This document shows, piece by piece, positions 10,306-61,587 of a stretch of 64,000 nucleotides of DNA. The DNA comes from an uncultured Rickettsiales bacterium (lineage in GTDB: Bacteria > Pseudomonadota > Alphaproteobacteria > Rickettsiales > SXRF01). Where the stretch lies: NCBI GenBank assembly GCA_964645205.1, contig CAZYBO010000003.1:634-64633 (forward strand), in the 5' to 3' direction. The translations under genes were made by a program, and so were the position numbers. Numbering within the stretch: position 1 is the first letter of the stretch; the number at the start of each line of letters is the position of its first letter. The notes beneath the pieces are model-generated. The model saw nothing but the letters and a program-made list of their open reading frames with translations, did no database searches and was not told the origin of the DNA.

Positions 10306-10326
10306 GAATAATGAAGATTTTATGAC
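10306..10326 (-). promoter_or_regulatory. direct-repeat promoter box (Pho-box/OmpR-like), orphan operon 8737-10255
   Basis: The minus strand reads GTCATAAAATCTTCATTATTC, then 18 nt, then TAGAAT (10282-10287). The box is 50 nt upstream of the ATG. Confidence 0.45.
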
Positions 10327-10394
10327 AGGTGGCGGCAAGTTCGCGCAAAACCCTTGAAAACCGGTGGTTTCGTGGTATTAACAGCCCCTGAATC

Positions 10395-10464
10395 TGTCAT
10401 CCTGAGCGAAAGCGAAGGATCCCCTTGCGGTAAAGCAAGATCCTTCGCTACGCTCAGGATGACA
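10395..10464. repeat. palindromic repeat family B, copy B1 (TGTCATCCTGAGCG...GAAGGATC ... GATCCTTCGC...CTCAGGATGACA)
   Basis: A ~70-bp inverted-repeat element, 17 nt upstream of the parE ATG. Confidence 0.9.
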
Positions 10465-10481
10465 ATAGAAAATGAGAACCT

Positions 10482-12461
10482 ATGGCCGACCTGTTCACCA
10501 ACAATAAAAACACCAAGACCAGCTCCTATTCCGCCGAGGATATTGAAGTTTTAGAAGGGCTTGAGCCGGTTCGACGCAGGCCGGGCATGTATATTGGCGG
10601 CACGGACGAACAGGCCATGCACCACCTTGTCAACGAGGTGTTCGACAACGCGATGGACGAGGCGGTGGCCGGGTATGCGGAGTCGATCGAACTGGAAATC
10701 AAGCCGGACAACGTGATCGTCGTGCGCGATAACGGGCGCGGCATTCCCGTCGACCCGCACCCCAAATTCCCCAAAAAATCAGCGCTGGAAGTGATCCTCA
10801 CCATGCTGCACTCGGGCGGCAAATTCGGCGGTAAGGTCTATGACACGTCGGGCGGGCTGCACGGGGTAGGCATTTCGGTGGTCAACGCGCTGTCGGATTA
10901 TCTCGAAATCGAAGTGGTGCGCGATAAAAAAATCTACCGCCAGTCCTACAGCCGCGGCGAACCGACCAGCAAGCTGAAGGAAGTCGGTCAATCGCCGCGC
11001 GGACGCGGTACTACGGTGGCCTTCCGCGCCGACCCGGACATTTTCGGCAAGGCGAAATTCCGCGCGGAAAAACTCTTCAAGCTCGCACGCTCGAAGGCGT
11101 ATTTGTTCCGCGGCGTGCACATTAAATGGATTTGCGATCCGTCGCTGATCCCGGAAGGCTCGGATGTTCCTGCCGAGGCGATGATTCATTTTCCCGGTGG
11201 ATTGAGCGACTTCCTGACGCAGCATTTGGGCGGCAGGCCGTGCGTCACTTCGCAAGCATTCACCGGCGAAGCGGATTTGCCCGGCGGCATGGGCAAGATT
11301 GAATGGGCGATCGACTGGCCGATCGACGAAGAGCCGTATGTTAGCACCTATTGCAACACGATCCCCACCCCCGAAGGCGGCACCCACGAATCGGGCATGC
11401 GCTCGGCGCTGACCAAAGGCATCAAAGCCTATGCGGAGCTTACGAATAATAAAAAAGCAGTGCAGGCAATGGGCGAGGACGTGCTCGGCGGGGCGGTCAT
11501 GGTGCTGTCGCTGTTCATGCGCGACCCACAATTTCAGGGGCAGACCAAGAATAAGCTGGTGAACGTGGAAGCGACGCGGCTGGTGGAAAACGCCATGCGC
11601 GACCATTTCGACCATTATTTAACCGGCGATCCCAACAACAGCAATATTTTGCTCGCCTATGTGGTGGAGCGCATCGAAGACCGCCTGCGCCGCAAGCAGG
11701 AAAAAGACGTGAGCCGCAAGGCGGTGACCACCAAGCTGCGCCTGCCCGGTAAGCTCGCCGACTGCACACGCTCGACGAACAAGGGCACGGAAATCTTCAT
11801 CGTGGAAGGCGATTCCGCGGGCGGCTCGGCAAAACAAGCGCGCAACCGTGATACGCAGGCCGTGCTGCCGCTGCGCGGAAAAATCCTGAACGTGGCGTCG
11901 GCCACGCTCGATAAGATCAAAGCCAACCAGGAATTGTCGGATCTACTGCTCGCGCTCGGCTGCGGCATCGGTTCGCACTACCGGGAGGATTTATTGCGCT
12001 ACGAACGCGTTATCATCATGACCGACGCCGACGTGGACGGCGCGCACATCGCTTCGCTGCTGATGACGTTCTTCTATCAGGAAATGCCGGAGCTGATTCG
12101 CGGCGGGCATTTGTTCATTGCGCGCCCTCCTTTGTTCCGCATCACTATCGGCAACCAGACGCATTATGCGCAGGACGACAAAGAAAAAGATGAGTTAGTC
12201 CAACGCCTGACTAAGGGCAGCGGCAAGGCGGAAATCGGGCGTTTCAAAGGTCTCGGCGAGATGATGCCCGCGCAGTTGAAAGAAACTACCATGAACCCCG
12301 GCAATCGCGTATTGCTGAAAGTCATGATCGCTGATGAAGACATAGAGCCGACCCGCGAACGGGTGGAACAGCTCATGGGGCGTAAGCCGGAACATCGCTT
12401 TGCATTCATTCAGGAGCAAACGAGCCGCGGCGGTGAAATCATGGAACAGCTCGACGTTTGA
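10482..12461 (+). CDS. parE: DNA topoisomerase IV subunit B
   Basis: GHKL ATPase N-terminus (LEPVRRRPGMYIGG, DNAMDE) and Toprim EGDSAGGSAKQARNR. The 659-aa length fits ParE rather than GyrB. Confidence 0.9.
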   Translation: MADLFTNNKNTKTSSYSAEDIEVLEGLEPVRRRPGMYIGGTDEQAMHHLVNEVFDNAMDEAVAGYAESIELEIKPDNVIVVRDNGRGIPVDPHPKFPKKSALEVILTMLHSGGKFGGKVYDTSGGLHGVGISVVNALSDYLEIEVVRDKKIYRQSYSRGEPTSKLKEVGQSPRGRGTTVAFRADPDIFGKAKFRAEKLFKLARSKAYLFRGVHIKWICDPSLIPEGSDVPAEAMIHFPGGLSDFLTQHLGGRPCVTSQAFTGEADLPGGMGKIEWAIDWPIDEEPYVSTYCNTIPTPEGGTHESGMRSALTKGIKAYAELTNNKKAVQAMGEDVLGGAVMVLSLFMRDPQFQGQTKNKLVNVEATRLVENAMRDHFDHYLTGDPNNSNILLAYVVERIEDRLRRKQEKDVSRKAVTTKLRLPGKLADCTRSTNKGTEIFIVEGDSAGGSAKQARNRDTQAVLPLRGKILNVASATLDKIKANQELSDLLLALGCGIGSHYREDLLRYERVIIMTDADVDGAHIASLLMTFFYQEMPELIRGGHLFIARPPLFRITIGNQTHYAQDDKEKDELVQRLTKGSGKAEIGRFKGLGEMMPAQLKETTMNPGNRVLLKVMIADEDIEPTRERVEQLMGRKPEHRFAFIQEQTSRGGEIMEQLDV

Positions 12462-12490
12462 TAATTACGAGCAATATTAATATCTTAAAT

Positions 12491-12508
12491 TGTCATAATG
12501 ATTGTCAT
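12491..12508 (+). promoter_or_regulatory. TGTCAT direct repeat upstream of the 12583 gene (variant box)
   Basis: TGTCATAATGATTGTCAT, with 12-bp periodicity, 75 nt upstream of the ATG. Flanked by ATATCTTAA direct repeats. The -10 spacing differs from the other boxes. Confidence 0.3.
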
Positions 12509-12582
12509 CATATCTTAACATGATGGAGCGAGCGATCTGGCTTATACTGACCCTGTAGCTAATAAACACAGGGAGCCGGCCT

Positions 12583-13026
12583 ATGAGCGGTGAATTAAGC
12601 AGCCATGACGTTGCACGCACCTATAAAGAATTCCTTGATCATTTTGACCATATCTCGCAACGCATTGCCCTGCGCGAAGTGGTACAGAGCAGCACACATT
12701 TAAAAAAGATGCTTACCAACACCAAAAATTCCCAACGCCCCCCTCTTGCGCAGCATGATCATTACGACGGCATTATCAATGCTGCTGCGCTCAACGTATT
12801 GAAAAGTTTTACGCCGGATCAGCTAATAACCACCGAATCCGCACTCAAGAATGCAATAGCAGGTGTTGATGAAGCTGGCGATAAGGCGACGATTGCAGCA
12901 CTGTCTGAGCAAGTAAAAACGAACCTGAAGGACATGGATGCGCAGCTTGCAGAAGGACACAGCCAGCGAATAGCCACAGAAAAAACCGACCAAGAATCCA
13001 AGCCCCGGAATCGCCTTAATCTCTGA
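12583..13026 (+). CDS. hypothetical protein, 147 aa (AT-rich islet)
   Basis: ATG with GGGAG 8 nt upstream. No recognised motif. The convergent neighbour's stop is 4 nt away. Confidence 0.5.
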   Translation: MSGELSSHDVARTYKEFLDHFDHISQRIALREVVQSSTHLKKMLTNTKNSQRPPLAQHDHYDGIINAAALNVLKSFTPDQLITTESALKNAIAGVDEAGDKATIAALSEQVKTNLKDMDAQLAEGHSQRIATEKTDQESKPRNRLNL

Positions 13027-13030
13027 TCGG

Positions 13031-13744
13031 TCACGCCACTTTGGGCATTAGTACTGAAGCAGGGATTTCATGTTGCGCACGACGGTAATCGGCGGGAACC
13101 CCAATATCGATAAAATAATCCAGTTGCGTATACACGCCGGGGCGTAACGCCGATGCACGGCGCGCCATTACATCGCGTTCAAAGGAAAACGTCTCCGGCA
13201 ATGCCATGCCTTTGAAAAACGTTGGCGACATGACATAAAACCCGGCGCTGATCGTGCCGGGTTGCGCATCACCCAGTAGCGCGAAATCACTAACTATATC
13301 ACCTTCGATGGTAAGTTTGCTGTAGCGGCTGCAATCGCTCACACGGCGCGCTGCCATGGTAAGCGATCGCCCGCTGTTGCGATGTTGCGTCATCATGCGG
13401 CGGTAATCGAGCGGAATGTAGGAATCGCCGTTTAGCACGAACACCGGTTGCGCAGGATTGAGCTGCGCCAAGGCGCGTTTCATCGCACCACCCGTGCCGA
13501 GCGGTGATTCTTCTATCGAATATGAAAGCGTGATCCCCGCATAGCACGCGCCAAAATATGCGCGGATCGTATCATGCATGTGGTGCACGCACAGCACCGC
13601 CTCGCGCACACCCTGCCCTGCCATGTAATCAAGCAGCCAGCACAAGAACGGCCGGCCGGCGACATCCGCCATCGGCTTGGGAACGCCCTGCACTGCGGGC
13701 AAGAGCCGCGTACCGAATCCACCTGCGAGAATGATTGCCTGCAT
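13031..13744 (-). CDS. sugar-1-phosphate nucleotidyltransferase (HddC/MurU-like NTP_transferase)
   Basis: N-terminal ILAGGFGTRL...PKPM signature and an EESPLGTGGA motif. Confidence 0.8.
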   Translation of the reverse strand: MQAIILAGGFGTRLLPAVQGVPKPMADVAGRPFLCWLLDYMAGQGVREAVLCVHHMHDTIRAYFGACYAGITLSYSIEESPLGTGGAMKRALAQLNPAQPVFVLNGDSYIPLDYRRMMTQHRNSGRSLTMAARRVSDCSRYSKLTIEGDIVSDFALLGDAQPGTISAGFYVMSPTFFKGMALPETFSFERDVMARRASALRPGVYTQLDYFIDIGVPADYRRAQHEIPASVLMPKVA

Positions 13745-13874
13745 AGGCGCAGGCTAGCCGCACAGCGATGCCGCGACAACGGGAAAATAGTTACTTTTCA
13801 ATATTCTACCTGTGGTTTAGAAAAAGATTTTTTACGCAACTTCTTTTGATGCTACAATCGAGCTTACCTATTTG

Positions 13875-14402: not shown

Positions 14403-14423
14403 ATTTCTTTCGCCGCCGCTTGT

Positions 14424-15818
14424 ATGCTGGGTCTTATGACCCATCCGCTGAACGTCCTCCGTAAAAATAAATCTCTTTCTATCCCCGTAACGCTGCTGCA
14501 TCAGAAGCAGCTTGCTGCTTGGCTTAAAAAACAGCCCGCAGCAACGCGCACGTGGCTGGACGTGAACACCTTCACCGCCGAACCGGGGAAATTCTGCCTG
14601 ATTCCTGCGAAAGACGGCTCGCTTGCCTCGGTCGCGTGCGGTATCGACGAAGCGCCGGATGTCTGGAGCATCGCGCATTTGCCAACCGCGCTCCCGGCAG
14701 GGCTTTACCATCTCGAAGGCACGCTGAACAAGGAACAGGCGACACAGGCGGCGCTCGGGTGGGCGCTCGCATGCTACCGCTTCGGACGCTATAAGAAAGA
14801 TGAGAAAAAGCTGGCGCAACTCGTAGCTCCCGATTCCTGCGACTCGCGCTATGTGGAGTCTATGGCACGGGCGATATTCTGGGCACGCGACCTTATCAAC
14901 ACCCCCGCTAACGACATGAATCCCAAAACACTCGCAGCCGAAGCGGAGCGCTGGGCAAAGCATGCGGGTGCGGAGGTGCGCGTTATTAAAGGCGAGACCT
15001 TACGCACCGCCAACTACCCGATGATCTACGAAGTGGGCAAGGCCAGCTCGGTGCCGCCGCATCTCGTGGATATACGCTTTGCCTGCGCGGGCGCGCCGAA
15101 GATTACGCTGGTGGGCAAAGGCGTGACGTTCGATTCCGGCGGGCTGGACATTAAATCGTCGGCGGGCATGAAGCTGATGAAAAAAGACATGGGTGGAGCG
15201 GCGAACGTGCTGGCGCTGGCGCGTGTGATCGTGGAGTCGGGTTTACGTGTGCAATTGCGCGTGCTGCTGCCGATCGTTGAAAACGCTGTCAGCGGCAACG
15301 CCATGCGTCCGATGGACGTAGTGCAGACGCGCAAGGGCATCACCGTGGAAATCGGCAATACCGACGCGGAAGGCCGCCTGATATTATGCGACGCGCTGTA
15401 TGAGGCCGACCAGGAAGCGCCCGACCTGCTGATCGATTGCGCAACGCTGACGGGAGCCGCACGTGTAGCGCTGGGCGCCGATATGCCTGCCTTCTTCACA
15501 CCCGATGACGCGCTGGCCAAATCGCTGATGGATGCCAGCAAAGCGCAGAACGATCCGCTCTGGCGCCTGCCGCTGTGGAAGCCCTATCGCAAGATGCTGG
15601 ACACGCAGGCCGCTCATTTAAGCAACGACCCGGACAGCTCTTATGGCGGCGCTATCACTGCGGCCTTGTATTTGCAGGAATTTGTCAGTAAAACACCCTC
15701 CTGGCTGCATCTTGACATGATGGCGTGGAACTTGAGCGCGCGTCCCGGCCGTCCGCAGGGCGGTGAGGCCATGGCAATACGCGCACTCTATAAATTGATT
15801 GAAAAACATTATGGCTAA
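14424..15818 (+). CDS. M17 family leucyl aminopeptidase
   Basis: NTPANDM, VGKGVTFDSGGLDIK and NTDAEGRL motifs. Confidence 0.9.
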   Translation: MLGLMTHPLNVLRKNKSLSIPVTLLHQKQLAAWLKKQPAATRTWLDVNTFTAEPGKFCLIPAKDGSLASVACGIDEAPDVWSIAHLPTALPAGLYHLEGTLNKEQATQAALGWALACYRFGRYKKDEKKLAQLVAPDSCDSRYVESMARAIFWARDLINTPANDMNPKTLAAEAERWAKHAGAEVRVIKGETLRTANYPMIYEVGKASSVPPHLVDIRFACAGAPKITLVGKGVTFDSGGLDIKSSAGMKLMKKDMGGAANVLALARVIVESGLRVQLRVLLPIVENAVSGNAMRPMDVVQTRKGITVEIGNTDAEGRLILCDALYEADQEAPDLLIDCATLTGAARVALGADMPAFFTPDDALAKSLMDASKAQNDPLWRLPLWKPYRKMLDTQAAHLSNDPDSSYGGAITAALYLQEFVSKTPSWLHLDMMAWNLSARPGRPQGGEAMAIRALYKLIEKHYG

Positions 15819-16173
15819 AGAAGAAAAAATCGGTTCCTCCAAAAGCATTCGCGCACTGAGTTTCTGGCATGGCGTCACCGCCGCTGCGCTTCGGCAGATG
15901 CCTCTCGATCTCTCCGCACGGCAGACGGCGGCATTGCTGCATGTCTATCTGGTACAGCAGCAACACAGCATCAAAAGTCTTGCCGAAGAGCTGGGCATCT
16001 CCAAGCCCGCCATCTGCCGCGCGGTCGACGCGCTGGAAAAGGCCAAATTGGTGAAGCGCTCTCGCGACAAGCAAGACAAGCGCAACGTCATCATCCAGCG
16101 CACCGTGAAAGGCTCCGTGTTTTTGAGTGAGTTCGCGGATATTATTTTGCAGGTTTCAAAAGAAGCGGCGTAA
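15811..16173 (+). CDS. MarR family transcriptional regulator
   Basis: Winged HTH SIKSLAEELGISKPAICRAVDALEKAKLVKR...DKRN. ATG 15811 overlaps the aminopeptidase stop by 8 nt; the ORF-track start at 15799 is TTG. Confidence 0.8.
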   Translation: MAKEEKIGSSKSIRALSFWHGVTAAALRQMPLDLSARQTAALLHVYLVQQQHSIKSLAEELGISKPAICRAVDALEKAKLVKRSRDKQDKRNVIIQRTVKGSVFLSEFADIILQVSKEAA

Positions 16174-16180
16174 GTATAAT

Positions 16181-16254
16181 TGTCATCCTGAAAGAGCGAA
16201 GCGACTGAAGGATCTGGCGCAAAGAAAGATCCTTCGCTTACGCTCAGGATGACA
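16181..16254. repeat. palindromic repeat family B, copy B2
   Basis: Same termini. Begins 8 nt after the MarR-family gene stop. Confidence 0.9.
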
Positions 16255-16301
16255 TCTAAAAAACTAACGCTTTTTTAATCCCCTCGGCGTAATGCTTACG
16301 C

Positions 16302-17099
16302 ATGCATACCTATTATATAGATGACAACGGACGCAAAGACGGGCCACACGATTTGGTGAGCATCATGCGCCGCATCCGCAGCGGTAAAATCACGCATGAA
16401 ACGCTGGTCTATGCCGATGAGCATGCAGCCGCTGCGCCTGCTGGCACCATCCACGACATCGCCCTGTTCTTCGACCATGACGCCCAGCAAGCCGCCAAAG
16501 CCAGCACGTCGTCGCTGTCACTCGGAAAATTACTTTTTTCCGGCTGGCATTTCGTTATCGAGCATAATGTGATGACGGTCTATGCGGGCGGCCTCCTGTT
16601 GCTGTCGATGATGGCGACGATGGTGTTCACCTCCGTACTCGGCACCCTTCCCGGCCTGATATTCGGCTGGTGCTTCTTCTTCACGTTCCATAATCTTTAT
16701 CTCGTGTTCATCCTGCGCATCTACCGCAGGCAACCGATCGGTTCATACTTCATCGGACGAAAACTTTCCGGCATCTTCGCGACATTGCTATTTACGAGCA
16801 TTGTACTTGCGCTGATGATCGCCGGCGGTTCGCTGCTTCTTATCATTCCCGGCATCGCGGTGGCGGTTATGTACGCGTTCGTGCCTTTTCTCATGTTCGA
16901 TTACCGCTTCGGTGTGGTGGAGTCGATGCACGCGTCACGACTACTTCTGCACAAGCATAAGCGCGGCTATCTCATGACGCTTTCGCTGCTCATGCTGATG
17001 CACCTTGCCTGTGTGCTTCTTATCATCCCTCTACCCCTCACCCTTCCTATGTTTGCGGCGGCCTTATCTGCTGTCTACGAGGAACTTTCTGCATCCTGA
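16302..17099 (+). CDS. GYF_2 (DUF4339)-like domain membrane protein
   Basis: N-terminal YYIDDNGRKDGPHDLVSIMRRIRSGKITHETLVY, followed by several TM helices. Confidence 0.6.
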   Translation: MHTYYIDDNGRKDGPHDLVSIMRRIRSGKITHETLVYADEHAAAAPAGTIHDIALFFDHDAQQAAKASTSSLSLGKLLFSGWHFVIEHNVMTVYAGGLLLLSMMATMVFTSVLGTLPGLIFGWCFFFTFHNLYLVFILRIYRRQPIGSYFIGRKLSGIFATLLFTSIVLALMIAGGSLLLIIPGIAVAVMYAFVPFLMFDYRFGVVESMHASRLLLHKHKRGYLMTLSLLMLMHLACVLLIIPLPLTLPMFAAALSAVYEELSAS

Positions 17100-17115
17100 G
17101 TCGTGTCAAGTATCG

Positions 17116-17147: not shown

Positions 17148-17210
17148 CATCGCTTGCATTCACCTGGGAAAGATGTTTTTTATCGCAATGTAGGAAAAAT
17201 TTTCCCCTCA

Positions 17211-17226
17211 TTAACGGATAAGTAAC
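17211..17226 (+). promoter_or_regulatory. weak CtrA-box-like site upstream of fliF
   Basis: TTAA-CGGATAA-GTAAC compared with the TTAA-N7-TTAAC consensus (one mismatch). Lies 68 nt upstream of the fliF ATG. Confidence 0.2.
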
Positions 17227-18943: not shown

Positions 18944-18959
18944 CCGATAAGGCAGGACT

Positions 18960-28525: not shown

Positions 28526-30382
28526 TTACTTCTGCACTACCGTCATCACGTTGCCGTTACCGGTCTGCAATACGTTAGCGTTGTTAAAAGTACCGAACTG
28601 CGAGATCGAGACATTATTAAGCATCCCCACCTGCTGGATCGAAGCGAGGTTGCTCATACCGTCCTGGTGGATGGAGGCGATATTCTCCGCACCGTCCTGC
28701 ATCAGACTTGCCTCGTTGAAATCCCCGCGAACTTCGATGCCTGCAACTTCGGTGCTGCCAGCCTGCCTTACTTTTGTTTTATTATCATTACCGGTGATCG
28801 CTACATTTGCCGTGTTACCGCCACCCAATATTTTCATATCGGTGATATTACGGTTACCGATCTGCCTGATCGTATCTTTGTTGTTATAGGCGGCTTCAAC
28901 CACCACGGCCTTGCTTGTCGCATCGGTAAGCGCATCGGTGGCCGCTACGTTGCCGTCACCGGTTTGTTCAAGCGTAAACGCGTTGGCAGTGGCATAGACG
29001 GAAGAATGCCAGACGCCACCCGTATTGCCGTTGCCTTTCTGGGCGATGGTCACGTCATTCGTGCTAACGGAATAGTCCCACTGGCGAGTCCTGAAGTCGG
29101 TGTTGCCTTCCCACGCGATAGCGCTGTTGTTGCTGCCTTCCTGGGTAACGTTCGTGATGCCCCAGAGACCAAGCTGCTTGACGCTGGCTGAATTGTTGTC
29201 GCCGCCCTGCTGAAGAATATTTGCGACGTTCACCCCCTTATCAAGCATGACAACGTACGTGTCGTAACCGGACTGTTCGATAGCAGCCGCGTTATTATTG
29301 CCGTGTTGCGTAATTTTTCCCTGATCCTGATAGGCGAACGAGTTGATAGCAGCACTGTTGGTATTGCCGATTTGCTCAATGCTGGCACTCATGTCACGTT
29401 CAGAGTCTCCATAACCCAAGCGCCCCTGCGTAATACGCGCGCCGTTATTATCGCCCATGATCACAATACTGCTACGCATGTTACTGAACAAATCACGAGT
29501 ACTTCCGGATAATATTGAAGAATTATTACCTGAACCCAATATACTGGTTGTGCTTGTAGTATTATTTGCGATCTGAAGATTAATACTAGAGTTTGAATTG
29601 CCGTATTGACTGAAGTTAATACTGCTATTGGCTCCTACAACAGCAACCGATGCATCATTAAAATTTCCATATTGCTCAAACTGAACCTGAGAATTACTAC
29701 TACCCCCATTAACTCGTGCTTTATTATTTTCTCCTATCTGACTAGCCAAGACGCTATTATTGTCGCCGCTATTTTCTACATATTCCATCGTGTTTGAAAG
29801 CCCTGACTGTGCGGCTTTTATGCGATTATTGTTACCAAATGTAGCAGCGTTCATAATGTTACCATCGCCTTGCTGCGTCAGGTCAAGGCTATTGTTCGTA
29901 CTGATAGGTTCATTATCATGCGGGAAAAAGTGTCTAACTCGCGCATTCAGCTTGTTTCCCGCACCATCCTGCTTTATGGCCACGGTGTTTGCGTTGCCTT
30001 TGACATCCACATCAACCTTATTAACATCTGGAAAAAATCCGTGATAATTCTGCGTAACTGACGTTTGGTTGTCGTTGCCCGCTTGCGACGCATTCAGCCT
30101 GTTTATGCCGGTGCCAGACGTTTGCGAGGCGGAAAGCGTATTACGGTTGCCCTCCTGCGTACCGCCGATGAAATCGTAGTTAGACGGAAAACTGCTTTCA
30201 TTGATCTGCTCGATACTGGCGACGTTACCGTTACCCGTCTGCGTGAACGGCGTAACCGGGACACCCGGTAAGGGAAGTCCCTGATTAACGCCTCCCACCG
30301 TGGCGGCGTAAGCAGGTATAATCGTAACAAAAGCAGAAACGGTCAGGATTGCCGTGGTGGTAAGCAGGGTACGCGTAAGCAT
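28526..30382 (-). CDS. secreted curlin-repeat (CsgA-like) protein, 618 aa
   Basis: Signal peptide ending AYA. About 30 units of G-x-x-N-x-(A/S)-x-(I/V)-x-Q counted by eye, e.g. QDGMSNLASIQQVGMLNNVSISQFGTFNNANVLQTGNGNVMTVVQ. Confidence 0.8.
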   Translation of the reverse strand: MLTRTLLTTTAILTVSAFVTIIPAYAATVGGVNQGLPLPGVPVTPFTQTGNGNVASIEQINESSFPSNYDFIGGTQEGNRNTLSASQTSGTGINRLNASQAGNDNQTSVTQNYHGFFPDVNKVDVDVKGNANTVAIKQDGAGNKLNARVRHFFPHDNEPISTNNSLDLTQQGDGNIMNAATFGNNNRIKAAQSGLSNTMEYVENSGDNNSVLASQIGENNKARVNGGSSNSQVQFEQYGNFNDASVAVVGANSSINFSQYGNSNSSINLQIANNTTSTTSILGSGNNSSILSGSTRDLFSNMRSSIVIMGDNNGARITQGRLGYGDSERDMSASIEQIGNTNSAAINSFAYQDQGKITQHGNNNAAAIEQSGYDTYVVMLDKGVNVANILQQGGDNNSASVKQLGLWGITNVTQEGSNNSAIAWEGNTDFRTRQWDYSVSTNDVTIAQKGNGNTGGVWHSSVYATANAFTLEQTGDGNVAATDALTDATSKAVVVEAAYNNKDTIRQIGNRNITDMKILGGGNTANVAITGNDNKTKVRQAGSTEVAGIEVRGDFNEASLMQDGAENIASIHQDGMSNLASIQQVGMLNNVSISQFGTFNNANVLQTGNGNVMTVVQK

Positions 30383-34443: not shown

Positions 34444-34632
34444 TTAGCGAGCGTTCGACGGTTTCACGGAATGTCCAGAATCCGTATCCGTCTTGCCTAC
34501 CGTATCAACCCACGGCGCATCCACATGACGCAGGGATTCAACGACAGCTTTTGCTTCACTTGCTTTCAACTTCGTCCATTTACGACCTGAATCAAGAATT
34601 TGGTCTTCCGGTTTCTTTTTATCATTGTCCAT
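34444..34632 (-). CDS. small hypothetical protein, 62 aa
   Basis: Charged small ORF followed by a plausible terminator hairpin. No homology recognised. Confidence 0.35.
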   Translation of the reverse strand: MDNDKKKPEDQILDSGRKWTKLKASEAKAVVESLRHVDAPWVDTVGKTDTDSGHSVKPSNAR

Positions 34633-34877
34633 GGTATTTCCTGCGTTATTAGGGTTATTTGCCTTAACTGCCGCCTATTCTAGCGTATTTCGTCGCCCGC
34701 ACGCATGAAGATTTTGTGACAAAAAATCTGGCTGTTTTTCAGTATTATGCCCCCTTGCCAGGGTAATGCGGGCGGAGGGCATGCCGCCCTTCACACAATT
34801 GTCATATATATCCCGTTGAAACAGGGTAATAATTACGATAATTTGAGAGGGTAGAGGCATTTACAAGGCGGATAGGC

Positions 34878-35381
34878 ATGGTTGCGCCCACACCCAAAAG
34901 TGATTTTTTAAAGGATTCTGAAGCACAGCGCGACAAAGAAAAAGTCATGCGCAAGGGGCGCGTAAACTCGTTTTTCTACAGCGCCAGCGATACGTTTAAA
35001 TTTTTAGCTGCGGTAATGCTCGCCGCAGGCATGGGGATCATCGGTTCCGTGCTGAAAGAATTACCGAAAGAAGCGACGCTCAGCACGGCTCTTTCGGCTG
35101 TAGGCGGCTCTCAGGTCGGGCTTATCTTTCTTGCGGTTGCAGCTGTAACGACCGCTGTTGCAGTAGGTTCACAATACATTTCTTCGCGCTATAATCAAAC
35201 CGCGCAGTTTGATTCGCTGGAAATCAACGCCAAACATACCGCTAAATATCTTTCCAAGGAACTCCAACAGGACAGCAAATGCCTGACGGAAGAGCAGGCT
35301 GCCACGCGCGCAGACGGCAAGAGCTGGACGCAATATGTGGATGCGCGCAACCAGCAAGGCACTGCGCCGACGTTGCACTAG
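34878..35381 (+). CDS. hypothetical membrane protein with paired central hydrophobic segments
   Basis: ATG start. Two hydrophobic helices (FLAAVMLAAGMGIIGSVL and GLIFLAVAAVTTAVAVG). AT-rich islet next to the tRNA. Confidence 0.5.
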   Translation: MVAPTPKSDFLKDSEAQRDKEKVMRKGRVNSFFYSASDTFKFLAAVMLAAGMGIIGSVLKELPKEATLSTALSAVGGSQVGLIFLAVAAVTTAVAVGSQYISSRYNQTAQFDSLEINAKHTAKYLSKELQQDSKCLTEEQAATRADGKSWTQYVDARNQQGTAPTLH

Positions 35382-36703
35382 GCTTTACGCACGGCCTTAT
35401 ACATCACCACCACGAACATCAATCCACCGATAATTGCAAGCAGACCGCCCATACCCATGAAGCCGAGCGCAGCTTTAACTGACGGCGCTATGTCGGCTGC
35501 CGCGCCGGGGGTTTTTCGTAATACGCCATATCCGCCCGACCATGCCAGCCCGCTGATATGCATCAACTGCCCACCGCCATATACGATAGGTTGCCAGTAG
35601 GCCAGCCTCCATTTCGATACGTCGCGGTAGCCGAAGCCGGGCAGCAGCGCATACGCCATGCCCATGAAGGCGAGCGTGACCCCGACGATGGAACCGTGGT
35701 AATGCGCGGGGATCACCACATTCTGCCCCTGAATCATGCCTGCTAAAATGCCCCCATAGATAAACAGCAGGAGCGAGGCCGCAAGCGACGACCACAACGC
35801 GTTTTTCTCCTTCCGCGCGCACCACACGACAGGCAGCACGAATAGCGCGAGCACGCATGGCGCGATGCCGCCCGCCCAAATCATCACGTCGGTAAAAAAC
35901 TGGCGATAGGCTTGCGAGGCGACATCGGCAGGCGCGGCAAATACCATCAGCAGCGCGGCGAGCAGGCCAATGCCGAACACACCGTAGAGCCAGTCGTTGC
36001 CGATGCGGAAATCGGGTTTGACGGCAACAGCAAGCAGCAGCCAGCACACCATCAATATCTGTGTGTGGGTAAATTGCAGGATATGACCGCCGCCCCAGAA
36101 CAGCATTTCATAATATTGCTGGCCGTCGATGACCGGCGGCACACGGGCGAACGCCGTGTAAAACACCACCAGCGCGCATACCGTAATCGCGGCTGCCGAC
36201 AACAGCGCGAAATGCAACGGCGTATACGGAGGGCGCAGGCTCAAAGCGCCGGTAAATACCCGCGCAAGCATCAGCGCCGTGCCACACCCGACCAGTGCCA
36301 GTCCCACGAAAAAAACGGGGCTATGGATAACGGGAATATAGTTGCTCATCATCGCCTCGCCCTCGGAATCGAGCGGTGAGAGCGCCATCGCCGCCATGCC
36401 TAGCGCAAAGCACAGCAGCGCGGACTCCTCAAGGTAGGGAATAAATCGCCGTGCGGACGATGTCATCATGCTCCACATGAGGCACGCAATGCACAGGAAC
36501 CATACCAGCACCGACAAATCCACATGCACCACCAGCGCCTGATGGAACAGGCCGGAAAATCCCGGCAGGCGGGAAAGCTGCGGTGTGCGCGCTACCACCA
36601 GCACCAGGGAAAACAAGCCTGCAATGGCGAGCGCAAGGGTGCCGAGGAGAAGCCAGAAGCGGGAGATAGGCCTTGGAGGGTGGGGATGAGGAGTTAGGGA
36701 CAT
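35378..36703 (-). CDS. polytopic membrane protein, distant heme-copper oxidase subunit I-like (tentative)
   Basis: About 12 TM helices. FWGGGHILQF resembles the WFFGHPEVY region and IPAHYHGS resembles the HxH helix X. No HH pair seen. The ORF-track start at 36712 is TTG; the first ATG is 36703. Confidence 0.4.
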   Translation of the reverse strand: MSLTPHPHPPRPISRFWLLLGTLALAIAGLFSLVLVVARTPQLSRLPGFSGLFHQALVVHVDLSVLVWFLCIACLMWSMMTSSARRFIPYLEESALLCFALGMAAMALSPLDSEGEAMMSNYIPVIHSPVFFVGLALVGCGTALMLARVFTGALSLRPPYTPLHFALLSAAAITVCALVVFYTAFARVPPVIDGQQYYEMLFWGGGHILQFTHTQILMVCWLLLAVAVKPDFRIGNDWLYGVFGIGLLAALLMVFAAPADVASQAYRQFFTDVMIWAGGIAPCVLALFVLPVVWCARKEKNALWSSLAASLLLFIYGGILAGMIQGQNVVIPAHYHGSIVGVTLAFMGMAYALLPGFGYRDVSKWRLAYWQPIVYGGGQLMHISGLAWSGGYGVLRKTPGAAADIAPSVKAALGFMGMGGLLAIIGGLMFVVVMYKAVRKA

Positions 36704-36753
36704 AGAAGCCAAGATGTAACATTGCTTGTGAATAAGTCGATACTCTTTTAATA

Positions 36754-39044: not shown

Positions 39045-39566
39045 TTACCAACGCGGCGTACGTGCCGCAAGATGATCGCCCACTTTTGCCATTTGTTCAG
39101 CGAGCGGCGCTAGCTGCAGCTTCTGCTGCTCCGGTGTTTTATCGAGAAGCTGCCCACTGCTGGCCGCCTGTTCAACCTGACTTACGGCATCCGCCATCCA
39201 ATTGGGAACCAGACCATTATGCGCCAGCCGCGCTACCGTGATCTCCGGTGCGAGTTCGTGCAGATGTGTACTTATCCGTTTCTCACGCAGGAAACTTTCG
39301 CCGGCTGTATCCTGAGGATATTCTCTGAATCTGGAATCCGGAATAATACTCATCCCCGCCAGCGCATTCACTGCATCTGGGTTACGCGGAATAATGCGCG
39401 ACACGATCTCTGTCCCTGGACCGGCATTCAGGCATTGTACATCGACGGCAACAACGGGACTTTTTTTATCCGGATTGACAAACGTCGCGCATAAGATTTT
39501 CCCCAACGTGTGGCTGCGATTTACCACAATATGGTGATCGCTTTGCTGTACTATTTCTTCGGTCAT
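39045..39566 (-). CDS. orphan protein, paralog of 40890-41396
   Basis: Shares IVVNR...KKSPVVAV, GLVPNW and QKLQLAPLAEQ blocks with the other copy. Has its own promoter box. Confidence 0.6.
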   Translation of the reverse strand: MTEEIVQQSDHHIVVNRSHTLGKILCATFVNPDKKSPVVAVDVQCLNAGPGTEIVSRIIPRNPDAVNALAGMSIIPDSRFREYPQDTAGESFLREKRISTHLHELAPEITVARLAHNGLVPNWMADAVSQVEQAASSGQLLDKTPEQQKLQLAPLAEQMAKVGDHLAARTPRW

Positions 39567-39614: not shown

Positions 39615-39634
39615 GAATATGACGATTTAATGAA
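39615..39634 (-). promoter_or_regulatory. direct-repeat promoter box, orphan paralog 39045-39566
   Basis: The minus strand reads TTCATTAAATCGTCATATTC, then 17 nt, then TATAAT (39592-39597). Confidence 0.45.
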
Positions 39635-39687: not shown

Positions 39688-40833
39688 CTATCCGCCCGTG
39701 CTGTAATTGATATTTTTGCGGGTAGATTGCTGCATCATGGCGTAGAGATAGTCGACCCCTTCCACATCGCGCCCATCGGAAAGATAGCGCATGCGCTCCA
39801 TGATTTTAAACGGCGTGGGTACCTGTTTGAAGCCGGTTTTTTCCACGCTTTCACGCTCAATGTCGCGGATGGCCTGTAGTGCCAACTCTGCCGCTTCGAA
39901 CATGGATTCCGGCAACTCCGCCTTGAAATACGCAGCCCGGAAACCGGCGGCATCCTGCATCAGTGTCTGCATATTTTTAAACGGAATGCGCAGCATGCGC
40001 GACATGCTTACTTCAAATAATTGCAGATTGCCCATAGTGAGCGCGGAGAATGGAGAAAGTTTGTTGCTGCCGTCAAGATAGTTGATGAGCTTCATCAGAT
40101 CCTGATCGTTCGATTTGTAACCGAGCATTTTCAGGCTGGTGAGCTCCAGGCTCTGGTCGAGCGCCTTGCGCAGCTCTTTCAATTCCACGAGGTTGCCGTA
40201 TTTCTGTTCAAGGTTCTGGCGCATGGTGTCAGACACGCGCTCGATCACTTTTTCCAGTACCGCGATGGGAACCGAGGTACGCTGCAAGATACCGCCCATT
40301 ACATCGGCGCTTTCTTTGTGGCGCTCGGTGATTTTCTCGAATGTTTTTTCGGCGATTTCCGCACCTTCGTTTTCCACGACGGTTTTAACCACCGATTCGA
40401 TACGCGTTTCCACCAGCGCGTCGGTGATGGTCTCCGATACGATTTTACGACGCGCGATGGCTTCGAGCTTCTGCGCATCTTCTGCACTGCTGATAAGGCC
40501 GAGGAGATCATTATCGCTTAACACGGTGGAATGCTCAAGAATGGGCGCAGCCACTTCATTGACGTCCGACGCCATTTTAAGAGCAATATCGGGCGGCAGG
40601 TCGATAGAGTGACTAAGGTTCATTGCCAGCACCGCACGCACCTGCACTTCCGCGCGGTTAAGCAGAAGGCTGAAAATATCGTTGGCAATCGCCGATTGCT
40701 CGTTGTTGAGGCCGCCCTCACCGTCAGCGTTGTAATGCGCGGTGAGTTTCTGGGCGACATTCATCTGCGTGGCCGCCGAACGGTCAGCCATCAATTCGGA
40801 AATGTCGTTTTGCGACAAGGCGCTTGCAGCCAT
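39688..40833 (-). CDS. DUF2336-like helical repeat protein
   Basis: The repetitive helical pattern LSHSIDLPPDIALKMASDVNEVAAPILEHSTVLSDNDLLGLI matches my memory of alphaproteobacterial DUF2336. Confidence 0.55.
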   Translation of the reverse strand: MAASALSQNDISELMADRSAATQMNVAQKLTAHYNADGEGGLNNEQSAIANDIFSLLLNRAEVQVRAVLAMNLSHSIDLPPDIALKMASDVNEVAAPILEHSTVLSDNDLLGLISSAEDAQKLEAIARRKIVSETITDALVETRIESVVKTVVENEGAEIAEKTFEKITERHKESADVMGGILQRTSVPIAVLEKVIERVSDTMRQNLEQKYGNLVELKELRKALDQSLELTSLKMLGYKSNDQDLMKLINYLDGSNKLSPFSALTMGNLQLFEVSMSRMLRIPFKNMQTLMQDAAGFRAAYFKAELPESMFEAAELALQAIRDIERESVEKTGFKQVPTPFKIMERMRYLSDGRDVEGVDYLYAMMQQSTRKNINYSTGG

Positions 40834-40889: not shown

Positions 40890-41396
40890 TTATTTAGCAG
40901 AGCCGGAAAGCTTTGTCAGCGTTTTATCCAATCGCTCCAAGCGCTCTGTAAGCGGCTGTAGAAGAATTTTCTGATCTTCTATGTCTTGGCGGGTAAGATT
41001 AAAATTGCTGGCAATGCGTGAAAAATCTTCTGCTGCAGCACCTATCCAACTGGGAATCAATCCTTTTTCATACAATCCTTGAATGTTTTCTCCAGGATTC
41101 AGTTTGCGCGTCATACGCTTTAATCCGGCATTCACGAGAAACTTCCCCGCAGGCTCATTCGCGGGCATCTCACATATGTGGCCATTCGCTACATTGGTTT
41201 CATATCCTTTGCGGGCAACAATCTGTGCCGAAACGTGGGTCACGCTAAGAGGATCTGCGCTGCTCGCCTCCAGCTCAATTGCAGCAATTGGGCTTTTGCG
41301 ATCTTCATTCAGCAGTAGCATATGCACTATGTAGGAGGGGCTATGATCATAGCGATTAACTATAATAAAGCGCTTTCCCTCAGCTAAAATTTTCAT
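40890..41396 (-). CDS. orphan protein, paralog of 39045-39566
   Basis: See the paralog entry. ATG start. Has its own promoter box upstream. Confidence 0.6.
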   Translation of the reverse strand: MKILAEGKRFIIVNRYDHSPSYIVHMLLLNEDRKSPIAAIELEASSADPLSVTHVSAQIVARKGYETNVANGHICEMPANEPAGKFLVNAGLKRMTRKLNPGENIQGLYEKGLIPSWIGAAAEDFSRIASNFNLTRQDIEDQKILLQPLTERLERLDKTLTKLSGSAK

Positions 41397-41465: not shown

Positions 41466-41486
41466 GATTTATTAAGATTTGATGAC
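41466..41486 (-). promoter_or_regulatory. direct-repeat promoter box, orphan paralog 40890-41396
   Basis: The minus strand reads GTCATCAAATCTTAATAAATC, then 16 nt, then TACAAT (41444-41449). Confidence 0.4.
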
Positions 41487-55654: not shown

Positions 55655-55736
55655 AGGCAAAACTTGTAACAAAACCCTAGCGCCAATGCACCATTTTTGG
55701 CATACCGTGACCCTGGAACCCTAAATACATAGATTT

Positions 55737-57140: not shown

Positions 57141-57145
57141 ACATT

Positions 57146-58649: not shown

Positions 58650-58650
58650 T

Positions 58651-59397
58651 ATGCCACGCTATAAACTCACGCTGGAATATGACGGCAACGGCTATGCAGG
58701 CTGGCAGCGGCAGAACGATTTGATGAGCGTGCAAGAAGCATTGCAGATCGCGTGCTTTAAGTTTTCTGGCGAAGAAGTGAATATCGTGGGCGCAGGCCGC
58801 ACCGACGCAGGCGTGCATGCCACGGCGCAGGTGGCACATATCGATTTACAAAAACCATTGGATGCGTTCCGCGTGATGCAGGGCATCAATTTTTATCTCG
58901 AAATCGGGCACAAAAACCGTATCGCGATTATCGATGCGGAAGAGGTGACGGAGGAATTCCACGCACGGTTTTCTGCGAAGGCGCGGCATTACCGCTACCG
59001 CATCATCAACCGCCGCTCGCGGCTGGGGCTGGAGCATGGGCGGGCGTGGCATGTGGTCAAACCGCTGGATATTGAAAAAATGCAGCAGGCGGCTGCGATG
59101 CTGGTCGGCCACCACGATTTCACCAGTTTCCGCGATTCGCAGTGCCAGTCAAAATCGCCGGTCAAAACGCTGGAAAAGCTGGACATCGCACAGCATGGCG
59201 AGGAAATCATTATCATCACCAGCGCGCGCTCGTTCCTGCACCATCAGGTGCGCATCATGACCGGCACGCTGGCGCTAGTGGGCAAAGGCAGGTGGCAGCC
59301 TCAGGACGTACAGGCCGCGCTGGATGCAAAAGACCGCGCGAAAGCAGGCGTTACCGCGCCGCCGGACGGGTTGTATTTAGTCGGGGTGGATTATTGA
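58651..59397 (+). CDS. truA: tRNA pseudouridine(38-40) synthase
   Basis: GAGRTDAGVHA catalytic motif. Confidence 0.95.
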   Translation: MPRYKLTLEYDGNGYAGWQRQNDLMSVQEALQIACFKFSGEEVNIVGAGRTDAGVHATAQVAHIDLQKPLDAFRVMQGINFYLEIGHKNRIAIIDAEEVTEEFHARFSAKARHYRYRIINRRSRLGLEHGRAWHVVKPLDIEKMQQAAAMLVGHHDFTSFRDSQCQSKSPVKTLEKLDIAQHGEEIIIITSARSFLHHQVRIMTGTLALVGKGRWQPQDVQAALDAKDRAKAGVTAPPDGLYLVGVDY

Positions 59398-59405
59398 CTC
59401 CTATA

Positions 59406-59435
59406 TTCCCTCCCCCCCTTGTGGGAGAGAGAGAA
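59406..59435. repeat. solo family C-type hairpin (C3) between convergent truA and the lipoprotein gene
   Basis: TTCCCTCCCCCCC-TTGT-GGGAGAGAGAGAA. Pairs better as minus-strand RNA (G-U pairs). Candidate terminator. Confidence 0.6.
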
Positions 59436-59441
59436 ATAGGG

Positions 59442-59681
59442 TTAATAGCCGCGCAGCTTGCGATCCCGGTCATCTTGCTTCATCTTCTCGAATTCGCGGC
59501 GCTGTTCTTCCATCATCTTCACGGATTTTTCTTCGCGGACGCATTTATCATATTCGGCGGTTCCGGGCTTGTAGCCTAAGCCTTCGCACTTCGCCATGCC
59601 GTCATAATCCGGCTTATTATCCGCGCAACCGGCGGTAATAAGGACGAGTGCAGCGAGTGTAGAAAATTTCAGCCATGTCAT
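59442..59681 (-). CDS. small lipoprotein, 79 aa
   Basis: Lipobox LITAGC after a signal peptide. ATGA overlap with the upstream gene. Last gene of the fliO-fliP transcription unit. Confidence 0.6.
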   Translation of the reverse strand: MTWLKFSTLAALVLITAGCADNKPDYDGMAKCEGLGYKPGTAEYDKCVREEKSVKMMEEQRREFEKMKQDDRDRKLRGY

Positions 59682-59920
59682 AAATCCTCCTTGCGAGATG
59701 GTTGGGTGATGTCTTTGTATTCTACTTCGATGATAGTGCTATCGCCGCCGGAGCCACGCGTGAAGCGTCGGCGCAGCCACCATTGCTGCACCATCATGAT
59801 GCAAAAACCGATAATGCCCGCCGCCAACGCAAAACCGAGCATAAATAGCCCGAACCAGAGCGCCAGCACCACGATCAGCGCCACGAACAGGGCGAATAGA
59901 ATGCCGAAAATGATTTCCAT
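59678..59920 (-). CDS. small membrane protein, 80 aa, two TM helices
   Basis: The start overlaps the fliP stop (TGATG) and the stop overlaps the next start (ATGA). Confidence 0.55.
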   Translation of the reverse strand: MEIIFGILFALFVALIVVLALWFGLFMLGFALAAGIIGFCIMMVQQWWLRRRFTRGSGGDSTIIEVEYKDITQPSRKEDL

Positions 59921-60744
59921 CAGATCGTTCCAAAACTTTTTACAAGGCTACCGCAAATCATATACCACCCATCCACCAGCACGAAGAAGATGAGCTTGAA
60001 CGGCAGCGAGATCATCACCGGCGGCAGCATCATCATACCCATGCCCATGAGGATGGAGGCGATCAGCATGTCGATCACCACGAAAGGAATAAAAATCAGA
60101 AAGCCGATTTCAAACGAGCGCTTCAACTCGCTGATCATGAAGGCAGGCAGCAGGATGCGATAAGGCATGTCTTCCGGCTCTTTGACTTCCAACCCCGGCG
60201 ACATGTCCATGAACAACTTCACGTCTTTTTCGCGGGCATGCTTGAGCATGAACTCGTGGAACGGTTCGCCGATGCGCTCCAACGCCTGCTCCTCGGTGAT
60301 GGTTTCCTCCAGCAGCGGCTTCACACCGTCGTTATAAGCCTTCTCGAAGGCAGGAGCCATGATGAAGGCGGTGAGGAACAGCGCAAGCGAAATCAGCACC
60401 TGATTGGGCGGTGTCTGCTGTAGGCCTATAGCGCTGCGCAAAAACGACAGCACGATGATGATGCGCATGAATGAGGTCATCATGATTAGGATCGACGGTG
60501 CAAGCGTAATCACCGTCATGAACAGCACGAGTTGGATAAGCCTGCCGGCTGCCGTGCCGCTGCTGGTTTTTCCCAGATCGACCGACATGGACTGCGCGAG
60601 CGCGGGTTCAGAATAGAAAAAGAGCGCCAGTAATGCCGCTATTATTGTCATTCCTGCGAAAGCAGGAATCTTAGATTTCAGCGCAGAGATGAGATTCCTG
60701 CTTTCGCAGGAATGACAAGGAATTGAGAGTGCTTCATGGGTCAT
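59920..60744 (-). CDS. fliP: flagellar export apparatus protein FliP, with a repeat element in frame in its 5' end
   Basis: TSFMRIIIVLSFLRSAIGLQQTPPNQVL and FLIFIPFVVIDM motifs. ATG 60744 lies 7 nt after the fliO stop. An alternative internal ATG at 60651 lies inside repeat A2. Confidence 0.93.
   Translation of the reverse strand: MTHEALSIPCHSCESRNLISALKSKIPAFAGMTIIAALLALFFYSEPALAQSMSVDLGKTSSGTAAGRLIQLVLFMTVITLAPSILIMMTSFMRIIIVLSFLRSAIGLQQTPPNQVLISLALFLTAFIMAPAFEKAYNDGVKPLLEETITEEQALERIGEPFHEFMLKHAREKDVKLFMDMSPGLEVKEPEDMPYRILLPAFMISELKRSFEIGFLIFIPFVVIDMLIASILMGMGMMMLPPVMISLPFKLIFFVLVDGWYMICGSLVKSFGTI
60646..60717. repeat. palindromic repeat family A, copy A2 (72 bp, inside the fliP ORF)
   Basis: Same termini as A1. 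72 bp equals 24 codons and is open in the fliP frame (PCHSCESRNLISALKSKIPAFAGMT). Confidence 0.9.
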
Positions 60745-60750
60745 TGTACC

Positions 60751-61020
60751 CTATTCCTTCGTGATATTCGATTCGATCACCAACTCGCGGCCGTCGGCGA
60801 GTAAAAGCAGGTGTTCCGTATTGTCGCGCCTGACCAACACCAGCCTGCGCTTGGGGTCGAGGGCGCGCATCTCAAGAATAGAAAGCCGCCCCTCGCCTTC
60901 CTTGGTGCCAAGCCAAGGATTGGATTTGCCGAAACGCCGGAGCAATGCGCCAAACACCCCAATCAGTCCGAGGATGAAAAGGGAGGCGAAAATGAACCGG
61001 GGAAAGTCGATGCTATCCAT
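60751..61020 (-). CDS. fliO: flagellar protein FliO
   Basis: Single TM helix followed by RLSILEMRALDPKRRLVLVRRDNTEHLLLL. Lies directly upstream of fliP. Confidence 0.8.
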   Translation of the reverse strand: MDSIDFPRFIFASLFILGLIGVFGALLRRFGKSNPWLGTKEGEGRLSILEMRALDPKRRLVLVRRDNTEHLLLLADGRELVIESNITKE

Positions 61021-61065
61021 GCCCCTGTCATAATGGATCGCGGGGCAAGCCGCAAGGGTTGTGGT

Positions 61066-61536
61066 TTAGTTCCTGCTGAATGGCTTGCCGGAAGAAACAG
61101 AACTTAGTAGCCTTTGAAACCTATTGCTATCCAAACCCACAATGGGTTTGGGCTTGGTTGGCTTCATAGTTTCACGCAGGTGAGGCAACCATTCCGATTC
61201 GATTTTTTTAGACAGAGCTTCATAAAGCTCAACACTGCTGCGGCTTGGCATTAGGGAAAAAGCTGCAACTGGCGTGAAGGTAATAACCTGTAATGGGCCA
61301 TGTTCGGGGTATGTTTTGCTAAATGAATACTCACCTTTTACATTTTTGGCGTCCAGAAACCCTTTGGTGTATGCCATAAGCGTGTCGCCAATGTGAAATA
61401 CCGCCTGATCGGACATCCCTTCAACAGAAAATTCCAAACGTGCCGGTTTGCCTGCTTCCACGACGCGCGATATGCGTATCCATGTTTCGCCGTCCAGCGT
61501 CATGCTTTTGGTTTGTATGTCTGTCTTTGTCTTCAT
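61066..61536 (-). CDS. orphan protein, 156 aa (AT-rich islet upstream of fliO)
   Basis: The ORF-track start at 61542 is GTG; the ATG is at 61534-61536 (MKTKTD). A TATAAT ends 8 nt upstream of the ATG. Confidence 0.5.
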   Translation of the reverse strand: MKTKTDIQTKSMTLDGETWIRISRVVEAGKPARLEFSVEGMSDQAVFHIGDTLMAYTKGFLDAKNVKGEYSFSKTYPEHGPLQVITFTPVAAFSLMPSRSSVELYEALSKKIESEWLPHLRETMKPTKPKPIVGLDSNRFQRLLSSVSSGKPFSRN

Positions 61537-61567
61537 AAGCACCTATTATAACTGAAAATACCGTGCA

Positions 61568-61587
61568 GATAATGACGATTTCATGAC
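61568..61587 (-). promoter_or_regulatory. direct-repeat promoter box, orphan gene 61066-61536
   Basis: The minus strand reads GTCATGAAATCGTCATTATC, then 17 nt, then TATAAT (61545-61550), which ends 8 nt before the ATG. Confidence 0.45.

Follow-up and report, generated by a model that had tools for sequence, protein, structure and literature searches.

What kind of regulatory element precedes a set of small orphan genes (ORFans) dispersed along an otherwise ordinary chromosome, and which regulator would read it? The case comes from an uncultured, flagellated alphaproteobacterium of the "Rickettsiales bacterium" clade of metagenome-assembled genomes (MAGs), of which we analyze one 64,000-nt stretch (contig CAZYBO010000003.1; "the window"). 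An original prediction, based on the letters of this DNA, proposed that a direct-repeat promoter module resembling the Pho box of Escherichia coli is shared by unrelated, AT-rich orphan genes that would form a regulon. We find a DNA motif that is evolutionarily conserved and clade-specific, and that stands before small lineage-specific genes, at least eight of them in the window. The unit has two 11-bp direct repeats, each consisting of (G/T)TCA(T/C) and an A-rich tract, that would be read along the direction of transcription. What appears to be new is a Pho-box-type activator site, shifted yet helically phased, that marks a putative and unusually dense ORFan regulon.

The motif is enriched and resembles PhoB sites

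All six sites quoted in the original prediction are present in the window at their coordinates (6/6), and the motif does occur above background there. With GTCATNAAATCGTCAT and up to three mismatches, we find 9 matches where 1.67 are expected, a number that none of 100 shuffled sequences reaches. The simpler pattern TCAT-N7-TCAT has 6 matches and 2.0 expected.

As an independent description of the motif, we use a matrix built from the 59 binding sites that an E. coli PhoB ChIP-seq (chromatin immunoprecipitation sequencing) study lists in its Table 1 (PMC10294691); the matrix includes no sequence from the window. At 13 bits or more, this matrix finds 10 matches in the window and 2.6 in shuffles. 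The nine top matches are those at 61588 (-), 34789 (+), 34721 (-), 10327 (-), 30461 (-), 12503 (+), 30483 (-), 39635 (-) and 41487 (-). All nine are intergenic and oriented towards the downstream gene, and they score between 13.8 and 18.0 bits, whereas the median of the E. coli sites themselves is 16.2. The sites quoted originally rank among these top matches, which bears out their description as Pho-box-like direct repeats of the OmpR/PhoB family. A published definition (PMC4415409) describes the PHO box as two direct-repeat units of 11 nt, and in each of them 7 positions are conserved while the other 4, rich in A/T, are less so. The repeat units of the window sites agree with it. Judged by sequence, the motif is quantitatively a PhoB-type site, and because of that match PhoB is the best candidate regulator.

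The motif is conserved within the clade

The closest genomes to the window are uncultured "Rickettsiales/Alphaproteobacteria bacterium" MAGs, with AnmK identities of at most 76%. We collected 30 related loci (470 kb) by scanning genome contigs for the AnmK neighborhood, and a set of more distant alphaproteobacterial loci (788 kb) as an outgroup. Labels such as L004 and L008 designate related MAG loci, while L105, L112 and L127-L187 are metagenome contigs. Counting matches to a degenerate consensus, KTCAYNAAANYKTCAY, with at most one mismatch, we obtain 7 in the 64 kb of the window and 36 in the 470 kb of related loci, compared to 1 in the 788 kb of the distant loci. The outgroup subset with GC content of 0.55 or lower has 1 match in approximately 253 kb.

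The conservation is positional as well. A CTTCACAAAACTGTCAT-like box is kept before the orthologs of gene 34878-35381 in L008, L012, L015, L020, L025 and L026, where the flanking sequences have diverged, and homologs of the same gene in L006 and L011 are likewise preceded by a box, for a total of eight related MAGs. In L004, the ortholog of the promoter at 39634 reads TTCATTAAACTGTCAC, 21 nt, TATAAT, so that both the box and its 37-nt offset are kept. L008 and L017 carry arrays of four half-sites directly downstream of anmK, which is the position of the 41486 promoter in the window. Several clade sites include TTCAC half-sites, and GTCAT predominates. The proposal of a motif marking a putative orphan-gene regulon thus agrees with what is found upstream of orthologs across the clade.

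Boxes are helically phased with the -10 hexamer

The sites at 10326, 34720, 39634, 41486 and 61587 have a common layout: a 16-mer, 21-23 nt, and a -10 hexamer of the form TAnAAT. Amongst 43 clade matches, strong -10-like hexamers peak at offsets of 26, 37-38 (15/43) and 48-49 (14/43) nt from the start of the box. These peaks are separated by 11-bp steps, one helical turn each, therefore an activator bound at the box would always lie on the same face of the helix. When 18 promoters of the 37-39 class are aligned, the box and the -10 hexamer are the only conserved blocks. In this class, the best match to a -35 element has 2.3 of 6 positions, versus 2.4 of 6 at random, and a conventional two-hexamer sigma-70 scan calls none of these promoters. 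Two other classes complete the picture. In the 48-49 class, represented by the 34878-35381 family, a -35 of the TTGAAA type lies 10 nt past the box; at promoters with tandem boxes, the box starts 26-27 nt upstream of the -10.

Classically, as in E. coli, the Pho box stands in for the -35 element, with about 10 nt between its end and the -10. The box had been placed originally where a -35 element should be, and the lack of a -35 together with the fixed, helically phased offset to the -10 upholds that placement. It had also been placed one turn beyond the classical position, which holds for the sites with a gap of 21-23 nt but not for the promoter of the curlin-like gene, where the gap is the classical 10 nt. 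As for the weak third repeat proposed to fill that turn, two sites do have it, but the 18 aligned promoters show no conservation of it. More generally, the promoters show the features of OmpR/PhoB-family activator sites: direct repeats with a period of 10-11 bp, a constant helical phase relative to the -10, and no -35. Taken together, a direct repeat, a constant face of the helix and the lack of a -35 are the signature of activation by winged-helix response regulators, and from this we infer that these boxes would activate transcription. The 26/37/48-nt geometry would be a natural series in which to look at the contacts of a PhoB-type activator with RNA polymerase at varied distances.

The downstream genes

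Genes preceded by a box have a GC content at third codon positions (GC3) of 0.43-0.56, versus 0.65-0.74 for housekeeping genes. In the window, a box precedes 8 of the 12 low-GC3 genes and none of the other 46 (Fisher p = 2.6e-7), in keeping with the claim that the module precedes AT-rich genes and no housekeeping gene. The products have few recognizable domains. A Pfam/NCBIfam search of the box-preceded gene products of the window has no match except for the curlin-repeat protein, and a search for homologs of two of the ORFans among 5.8 billion proteins returns only the queries themselves. One of the box-driven families is an M48-type peptidase. Many box-driven proteins, both in the window and in its relatives, have a bilobed hydrophobic stretch of 40-60 residues. 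A further box promoter is found in L105, an alphaproteobacterial metagenome contig, before the gene of a 226-aa ankyrin-repeat protein (4738-5418, -). The same contig encodes ChpT and, adjacent to it, a regulator of the OmpR family that is probably CtrA. Altogether, these features hint at a surface or interaction-related gene set.

The downstream genes had been described as having no similarity to each other. This is not so for all of them, as the products of 39045-39566 and 40890-41396, each with one box promoter, are paralogs (25% identity, E-value 6e-16). AlphaFold models the 39045-39566 product with confidence (predicted local distance difference test, pLDDT, 82; predicted template modeling score, pTM, 0.80), and a Foldseek search with the model finds no fold match in the PDB, with a best E-value of 0.44. 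The paralogous pair flanks the DUF2336 gene 39688-40833, and in the closest MAG, L004, two tandem copies follow the DUF2336 gene.

The box offers a handle on genes that are beyond classification by homology: in this lineage, it is a highly specific marker of putatively co-regulated ORFans, which make up much of the accessory genome.

Which regulator reads the boxes?

The explanation that we favor, with chances we put somewhat above even, is that the sites are boxes of a PhoB-type response regulator (OmpR/PhoB family, winged-helix), most likely the PhoB ortholog of the host. Two phosphorylated regulator molecules, arranged on the DNA as a head-to-tail dimer, would bring sigma-70 RNA polymerase to promoters with a good -10 (TAnAAT) and usually without a -35. 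The start of the box would lie 37-39 nt from the -10 in most cases, 26-27 nt if boxes are in tandem, and 48-49 nt if a -35 is present. The regulon would include mainly small, low-GC3, lineage-specific genes, singly dispersed among housekeeping genes. With PhoB as the regulator, the targets would be induced jointly under phosphate limitation, and this would be an unusually large regulon with an unusual set of genes for that condition, which would be relevant to phosphorus-limited freshwater. In this proposal, the identity of the motif, its enrichment, its conservation in the clade, the phased geometry and the lack of a -35 are shown, while it is inferred that the boxes activate, which regulator binds them and which signal induces the genes.

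The regulator was expected to lie outside of the window, and indeed no OmpR-family regulator is encoded in it. Searching the window and 83 loci by tblastn with approximate E. coli PhoB, PstB and PhoU queries identifies receiver domains only. A scan of metagenomes for a box followed by 20-23 nt and TANAAT includes many chance matches in AT-rich sequence, thus its results are anecdotes rather than statistics. Among the matches listed, L144 has the box between a phoB ortholog (53% identical to E. coli PhoB) with its kinase on one side and a major facilitator superfamily (MFS) transporter gene on the other, and L137 has, in this order, phoU, ppx, a box and nupC. These arrangements suggest, anecdotally, that the geometry with the box one turn upstream adjoins genuine Pho genes in other bacteria.

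Several observations weigh against PhoB as the regulator. Neither phoB, phoR, pstSCAB nor phoU is found in the window or in the 470 kb of related loci. For about 20 target proteins from the window and its relatives, the domains identified are limited to Curlin_rpt and Peptidase_M48, with no function in phosphate scavenging or acquisition. The sites are also unusually dense: there are 8 promoters in the 64 kb of the window and about one per 15 kb in the relatives (overall, about one per 8-17 kb), whereas known PhoB regulons are 5-10 times less dense. In E. coli there are 65 PhoB-bound regions per 4.6 Mb (PMC10294691), and the Caulobacter PhoB regulon has 47 regulated genes. As to position, most boxes are one or two turns upstream of the classical one, with 21-23 nt to the -10 and 33 nt in one class; the classical 10-nt gap is found only with the four-half-site arrays of the curlin-like promoter and of L008. 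Finally, the two cases with neighboring Pho genes compare to about 0.5 expected by chance among approximately 70 bacterial loci, and are anecdotal.

Since the targets include no phosphate-acquisition genes, the density is high and the position of the boxes is not classical, a lineage-specific PhoB-like paralog, or another OmpR-family regulator, is a serious rival, which we consider possible but rather on the unlikely side. Such a regulator would respond to another cue, such as contact with a host or prey or envelope stress, and would control a large set of secreted or membrane ORFans. ORFan targets without families, the bilobed hydrophobic stretch that many of them have, and the box-driven ankyrin-repeat protein of L105 all fit that proposal, for which the control of effectors by PmrA and CpxR in Legionella provides a precedent (PMC6989116). 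Should it be correct, the motif would outline a set of candidate effectors for a group without cultured members. On the other hand, the motif is a typical PhoB site according to the E. coli-derived matrix, and the DNA specificity of PhoB is widely conserved. No candidate paralog is seen in the window or the related loci, no secretion-system genes or host association are demonstrated in the available sequence of the lineage, and most of the related MAGs come from freshwater, a setting in which a large regulon for phosphate starvation would be plausible. A more speculative and rather unlikely extension, which we propose only tentatively by analogy to the PmrA/CpxR effector regulons of Legionella, would have a PhoB-type regulon expanded to well over 100 promoters for ORFans (small membrane-hairpin, secreted, curlin-like and ankyrin-repeat proteins), an effector-like set for interaction with host or prey, with the activator one or two helical turns upstream of the position classical for PhoB.

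CtrA, another OmpR-family regulator, also binds 11-bp-phased direct repeats near the -35 region, and the targets could in principle belong to its cell-cycle and flagellar regulon: some second half-sites are TTAAT, TTAAC or GTAAC, and target 61066-61536 is just upstream of fliP. We regard this as very improbable, given that the dominant core here is TCA and that TTAA-N7-TTAA is not enriched in the window (1 match vs 0.59 expected). Moreover, a separate near-canonical CtrA box, TTAACGGATAAGTAAC (TTAA-N7-GTAAC), is present at about 17207-17222 (+), upstream of fliF (17294) in the fliF-fliG-fliH cluster. Its cores are TAA, its spacer is not A-rich, and the PhoB matrix misses it. The fliF box is distinct from the motif, therefore the specificity of CtrA looks canonical and separate. 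On these two grounds, the absence of TTAA-N7-TTAA enrichment and the separate box at fliF, we reject the identity of the motif as canonical CtrA boxes. The sites could instead be repressor operators, sites for a factor other than a response regulator (for instance an AraC-type monomer), or copies of a mobile promoter cassette, which taken together we judge improbable. Direct repeats one helical turn apart can be read by monomers with two helix-turn-helix motifs, PhoB itself can repress depending on the position of its site (PMC10294691), and two of the promoters belong to paralogous genes that were possibly duplicated with them. However, the lack of a -35 and the strictness with which the boxes keep in helical phase with the -10 speak for activation, and the motif fits a response-regulator matrix. 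The origin from a repeated element is rejected, as the 18 aligned promoters have no similarity outside of the box and the -10. Last, PhoB-like matrices favor AT-rich DNA, and the metagenome scan has many matches in AT-rich contigs without a downstream gene, which raises the question of a chance likeness between AT-rich intergenic regions. To this we assign next to no probability, and we reject it considering the enrichment over shuffles, the uniform orientation towards the downstream gene, the fixed and phased -10 offset, the conservation at orthologous positions, and the clade specificity at matched GC. The sites as boxes of a PhoB-type response regulator thus remain our favored explanation, and the original interpretation is supported in its main points.

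Comparison to known systems

The E. coli Pho box likewise comprises two direct repeats of 11 bp, with (C)TGTCA(T/C) as the core and a tract rich in A/T. It is also alike in the orientation of the repeats relative to transcription, in having a -10 without a -35, and in forming tandem arrays at some promoters. The window sites also score like genuine ChIP-seq sites. It is unlike in that here the offset between box start and -10 is 37-39 or 48-49 nt in most promoters, versus about 27 nt in E. coli, and in that the PhoB regulon of E. coli has phosphate-acquisition genes where this one has ORFans, at a density here about 5-10 times higher.

Like the motif, the CtrA box (TTAA-N7-TTAAC) of Alphaproteobacteria is an 11-bp-phased direct repeat for a regulator of the OmpR family, and it overlaps or adjoins the -35; its core is TAA instead of TCA, and its spacer is not A-rich. 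The "cre tag" of CreB is TTCACnnnnnnTTCAC, and CreBC is a gammaproteobacterial system. The cre tag has the same 11-bp period, and the TTCAC half-sites of several clade sites resemble it, whereas it is GTCAT that predominates in the clade sites.

The winged-helix regulators PmrA and CpxR, with the repeats cTTAATatT and GTAAA respectively, provide a parallel of a different kind. In Legionella, PmrA controls about 40 effector genes and CpxR about 30 (PMC6989116). These regulons, in Legionella and Coxiella, are similar in that a direct repeat at a fixed distance from the -10 precedes scattered, lineage-specific, low-GC genes (PMC6989116), and in that the motif serves to list a set of genes otherwise unrecognizable. 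The differences are the repeat sequence, and that type IV secretion or intracellular life is not demonstrated for the present lineage.

Individual sites in the window

All scores in this section are from the E. coli PhoB matrix, and offsets run from the start of the box to the -10. The most common arrangement has a single box at an offset of 37-39 nt. The window's best site, GTCATGAAATCGTCAT at 61572..61587 (-) with 18.0 bits, has its -10 TATAAT at 61550-61545 (offset 37) and precedes ORFan 61066-61536. An 89-aa open reading frame (ORF) and fliP (together 61020-59920, -) follow that ORFan after only 45 nt, with no obvious terminator in the gap, and the flagellar export genes may be cotranscribed from this box promoter. 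Box GTCATAAAATCTTCAT at 10311..10326 (-) scores 16.5 bits, with -10 TAGAAT at 10287-10282 (offset 39). It would drive ORFan 9851-10255, probably in cotranscription with 9233-9829 and 8737-9252. The two promoters of the paralogous ORFans have nearly the same score. They are TTCATTAAATCGTCAT at 39619..39634 (-), with -10 TATAAT at 39597-39592, offset 37 and 13.9 bits, for ORFan 39045-39566; and GTCATCAAATCTTAAT at 41471..41486 (-), with -10 TACAAT at 41449-41444, offset 37 and 13.8 bits, for ORFan 40890-41396. The latter box possibly drives the DUF2336 gene 39688-40833 also.

On the plus strand, box GTCATCATATCTTAAC at 12504..12519 (+) is followed by 23 nt and the -10 TATACT at 12543-12548 (offset 39), scores 14.4 bits, and precedes ORFan 12583-13026. 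The original prediction quoted a variant at 12491-12508, which is present in sequence, but has a 12-bp spacing in the wrong register; the site in phase is 12504-12519, and it is accompanied by an extra, out-of-phase GTCAT at 12492.

Three sites are additions to the six quoted originally. Box GTCACAAAATCTTCAT at 34705..34720 (-) is followed by 22 nt and the -10 TAGAAT at 34682-34677 (offset 38), and precedes a 62-aa ORF, 34444-34632, with 16.8 bits. In the opposite orientation, box TTCACACAATTGTCAT at 34790..34805 (+), with 17.7 bits, precedes the membrane protein gene 34878-35381. This promoter has the box, 10 nt, the -35 TTGAAA (34816-34821), 17 nt, and TAATTT (34839-34844), with an offset of 49. 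The gene is syntenic throughout the clade with 35378-36712 (-), which encodes a divergent 444-aa COX1-like membrane protein (PF00115, with an E-value of only 4.6e-11) and adjoins ctaA. The third addition is the second of the two tandem boxes upstream of the curlin-repeat gene 28526-30382, at 30482-30445 (-), which score 15.8 and 14.3 bits. The half-sites GTAAC/TTCAC/GTCAT/GTCAC are in exact 11-bp phase, followed by 10 nt and TAGGCT (30434-30429). The product of this gene (28526-30382, -) is 618 aa long, starts with a signal peptide and has numerous curlin repeats of the CsgA/CsgB type. No csgEFG-like neighbors of the gene are evident, and a strong terminator-like hairpin follows it at 28517-28488.

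A weak and doubtful site, TCGACAAAATCTTCAT / TTCATTTGCTGTTCAT at 4758..4773 (-), is upstream of the GGDEF gene 3754-4875 and falls under the threshold of the E. coli matrix.

Genomic context and other observations

In gene content, the window is an ordinary chromosomal segment from a motile alphaproteobacterium; among its genes are recG, mfd, one for a topoisomerase subunit of the GyrB/ParE type, pepA, fliF/G/H, a sigma-54 activator, flhA, flhF, ispB, ctaA, tyrS, anmK, glnE, uvrD, comEC, gltX, def, fmt, truA, fliP and asd. No Rfam families are found in the window besides one tRNA.

The metagenome contigs provide two additional observations. In at least seven of them (L127, L135, L138, L142, L162, L175 and L187; GC content about 0.52-0.54) a 287-aa di-iron oxygenase/desaturase-like protein recurs, with weak FA_desaturase_2 and AurF matches. 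Its gene is preceded by GTCACCAAATCTTCAT (GTCACCAAATCTTCAC in L162), 21 nt and TAAAAT, and may be under Pho control in another abundant lineage. In L112 and L148, both with a GC content of about 0.3, an identical string of box plus TAGAAT appears with a regular period: three matches in L112, spaced by about 777 bp, and two in L148, spaced by about 803 bp. Most copies have no ORF downstream, and the strings look like tandem repeats unrelated to the box promoters. In the window itself, a long imperfect inverted repeat (tgtcatcctga...tcaggatgaca) occupies 16178-16258 (+), between 15799-16173 and 16302-17099, and may be a repetitive extragenic palindromic (REP)-like element or a terminator.

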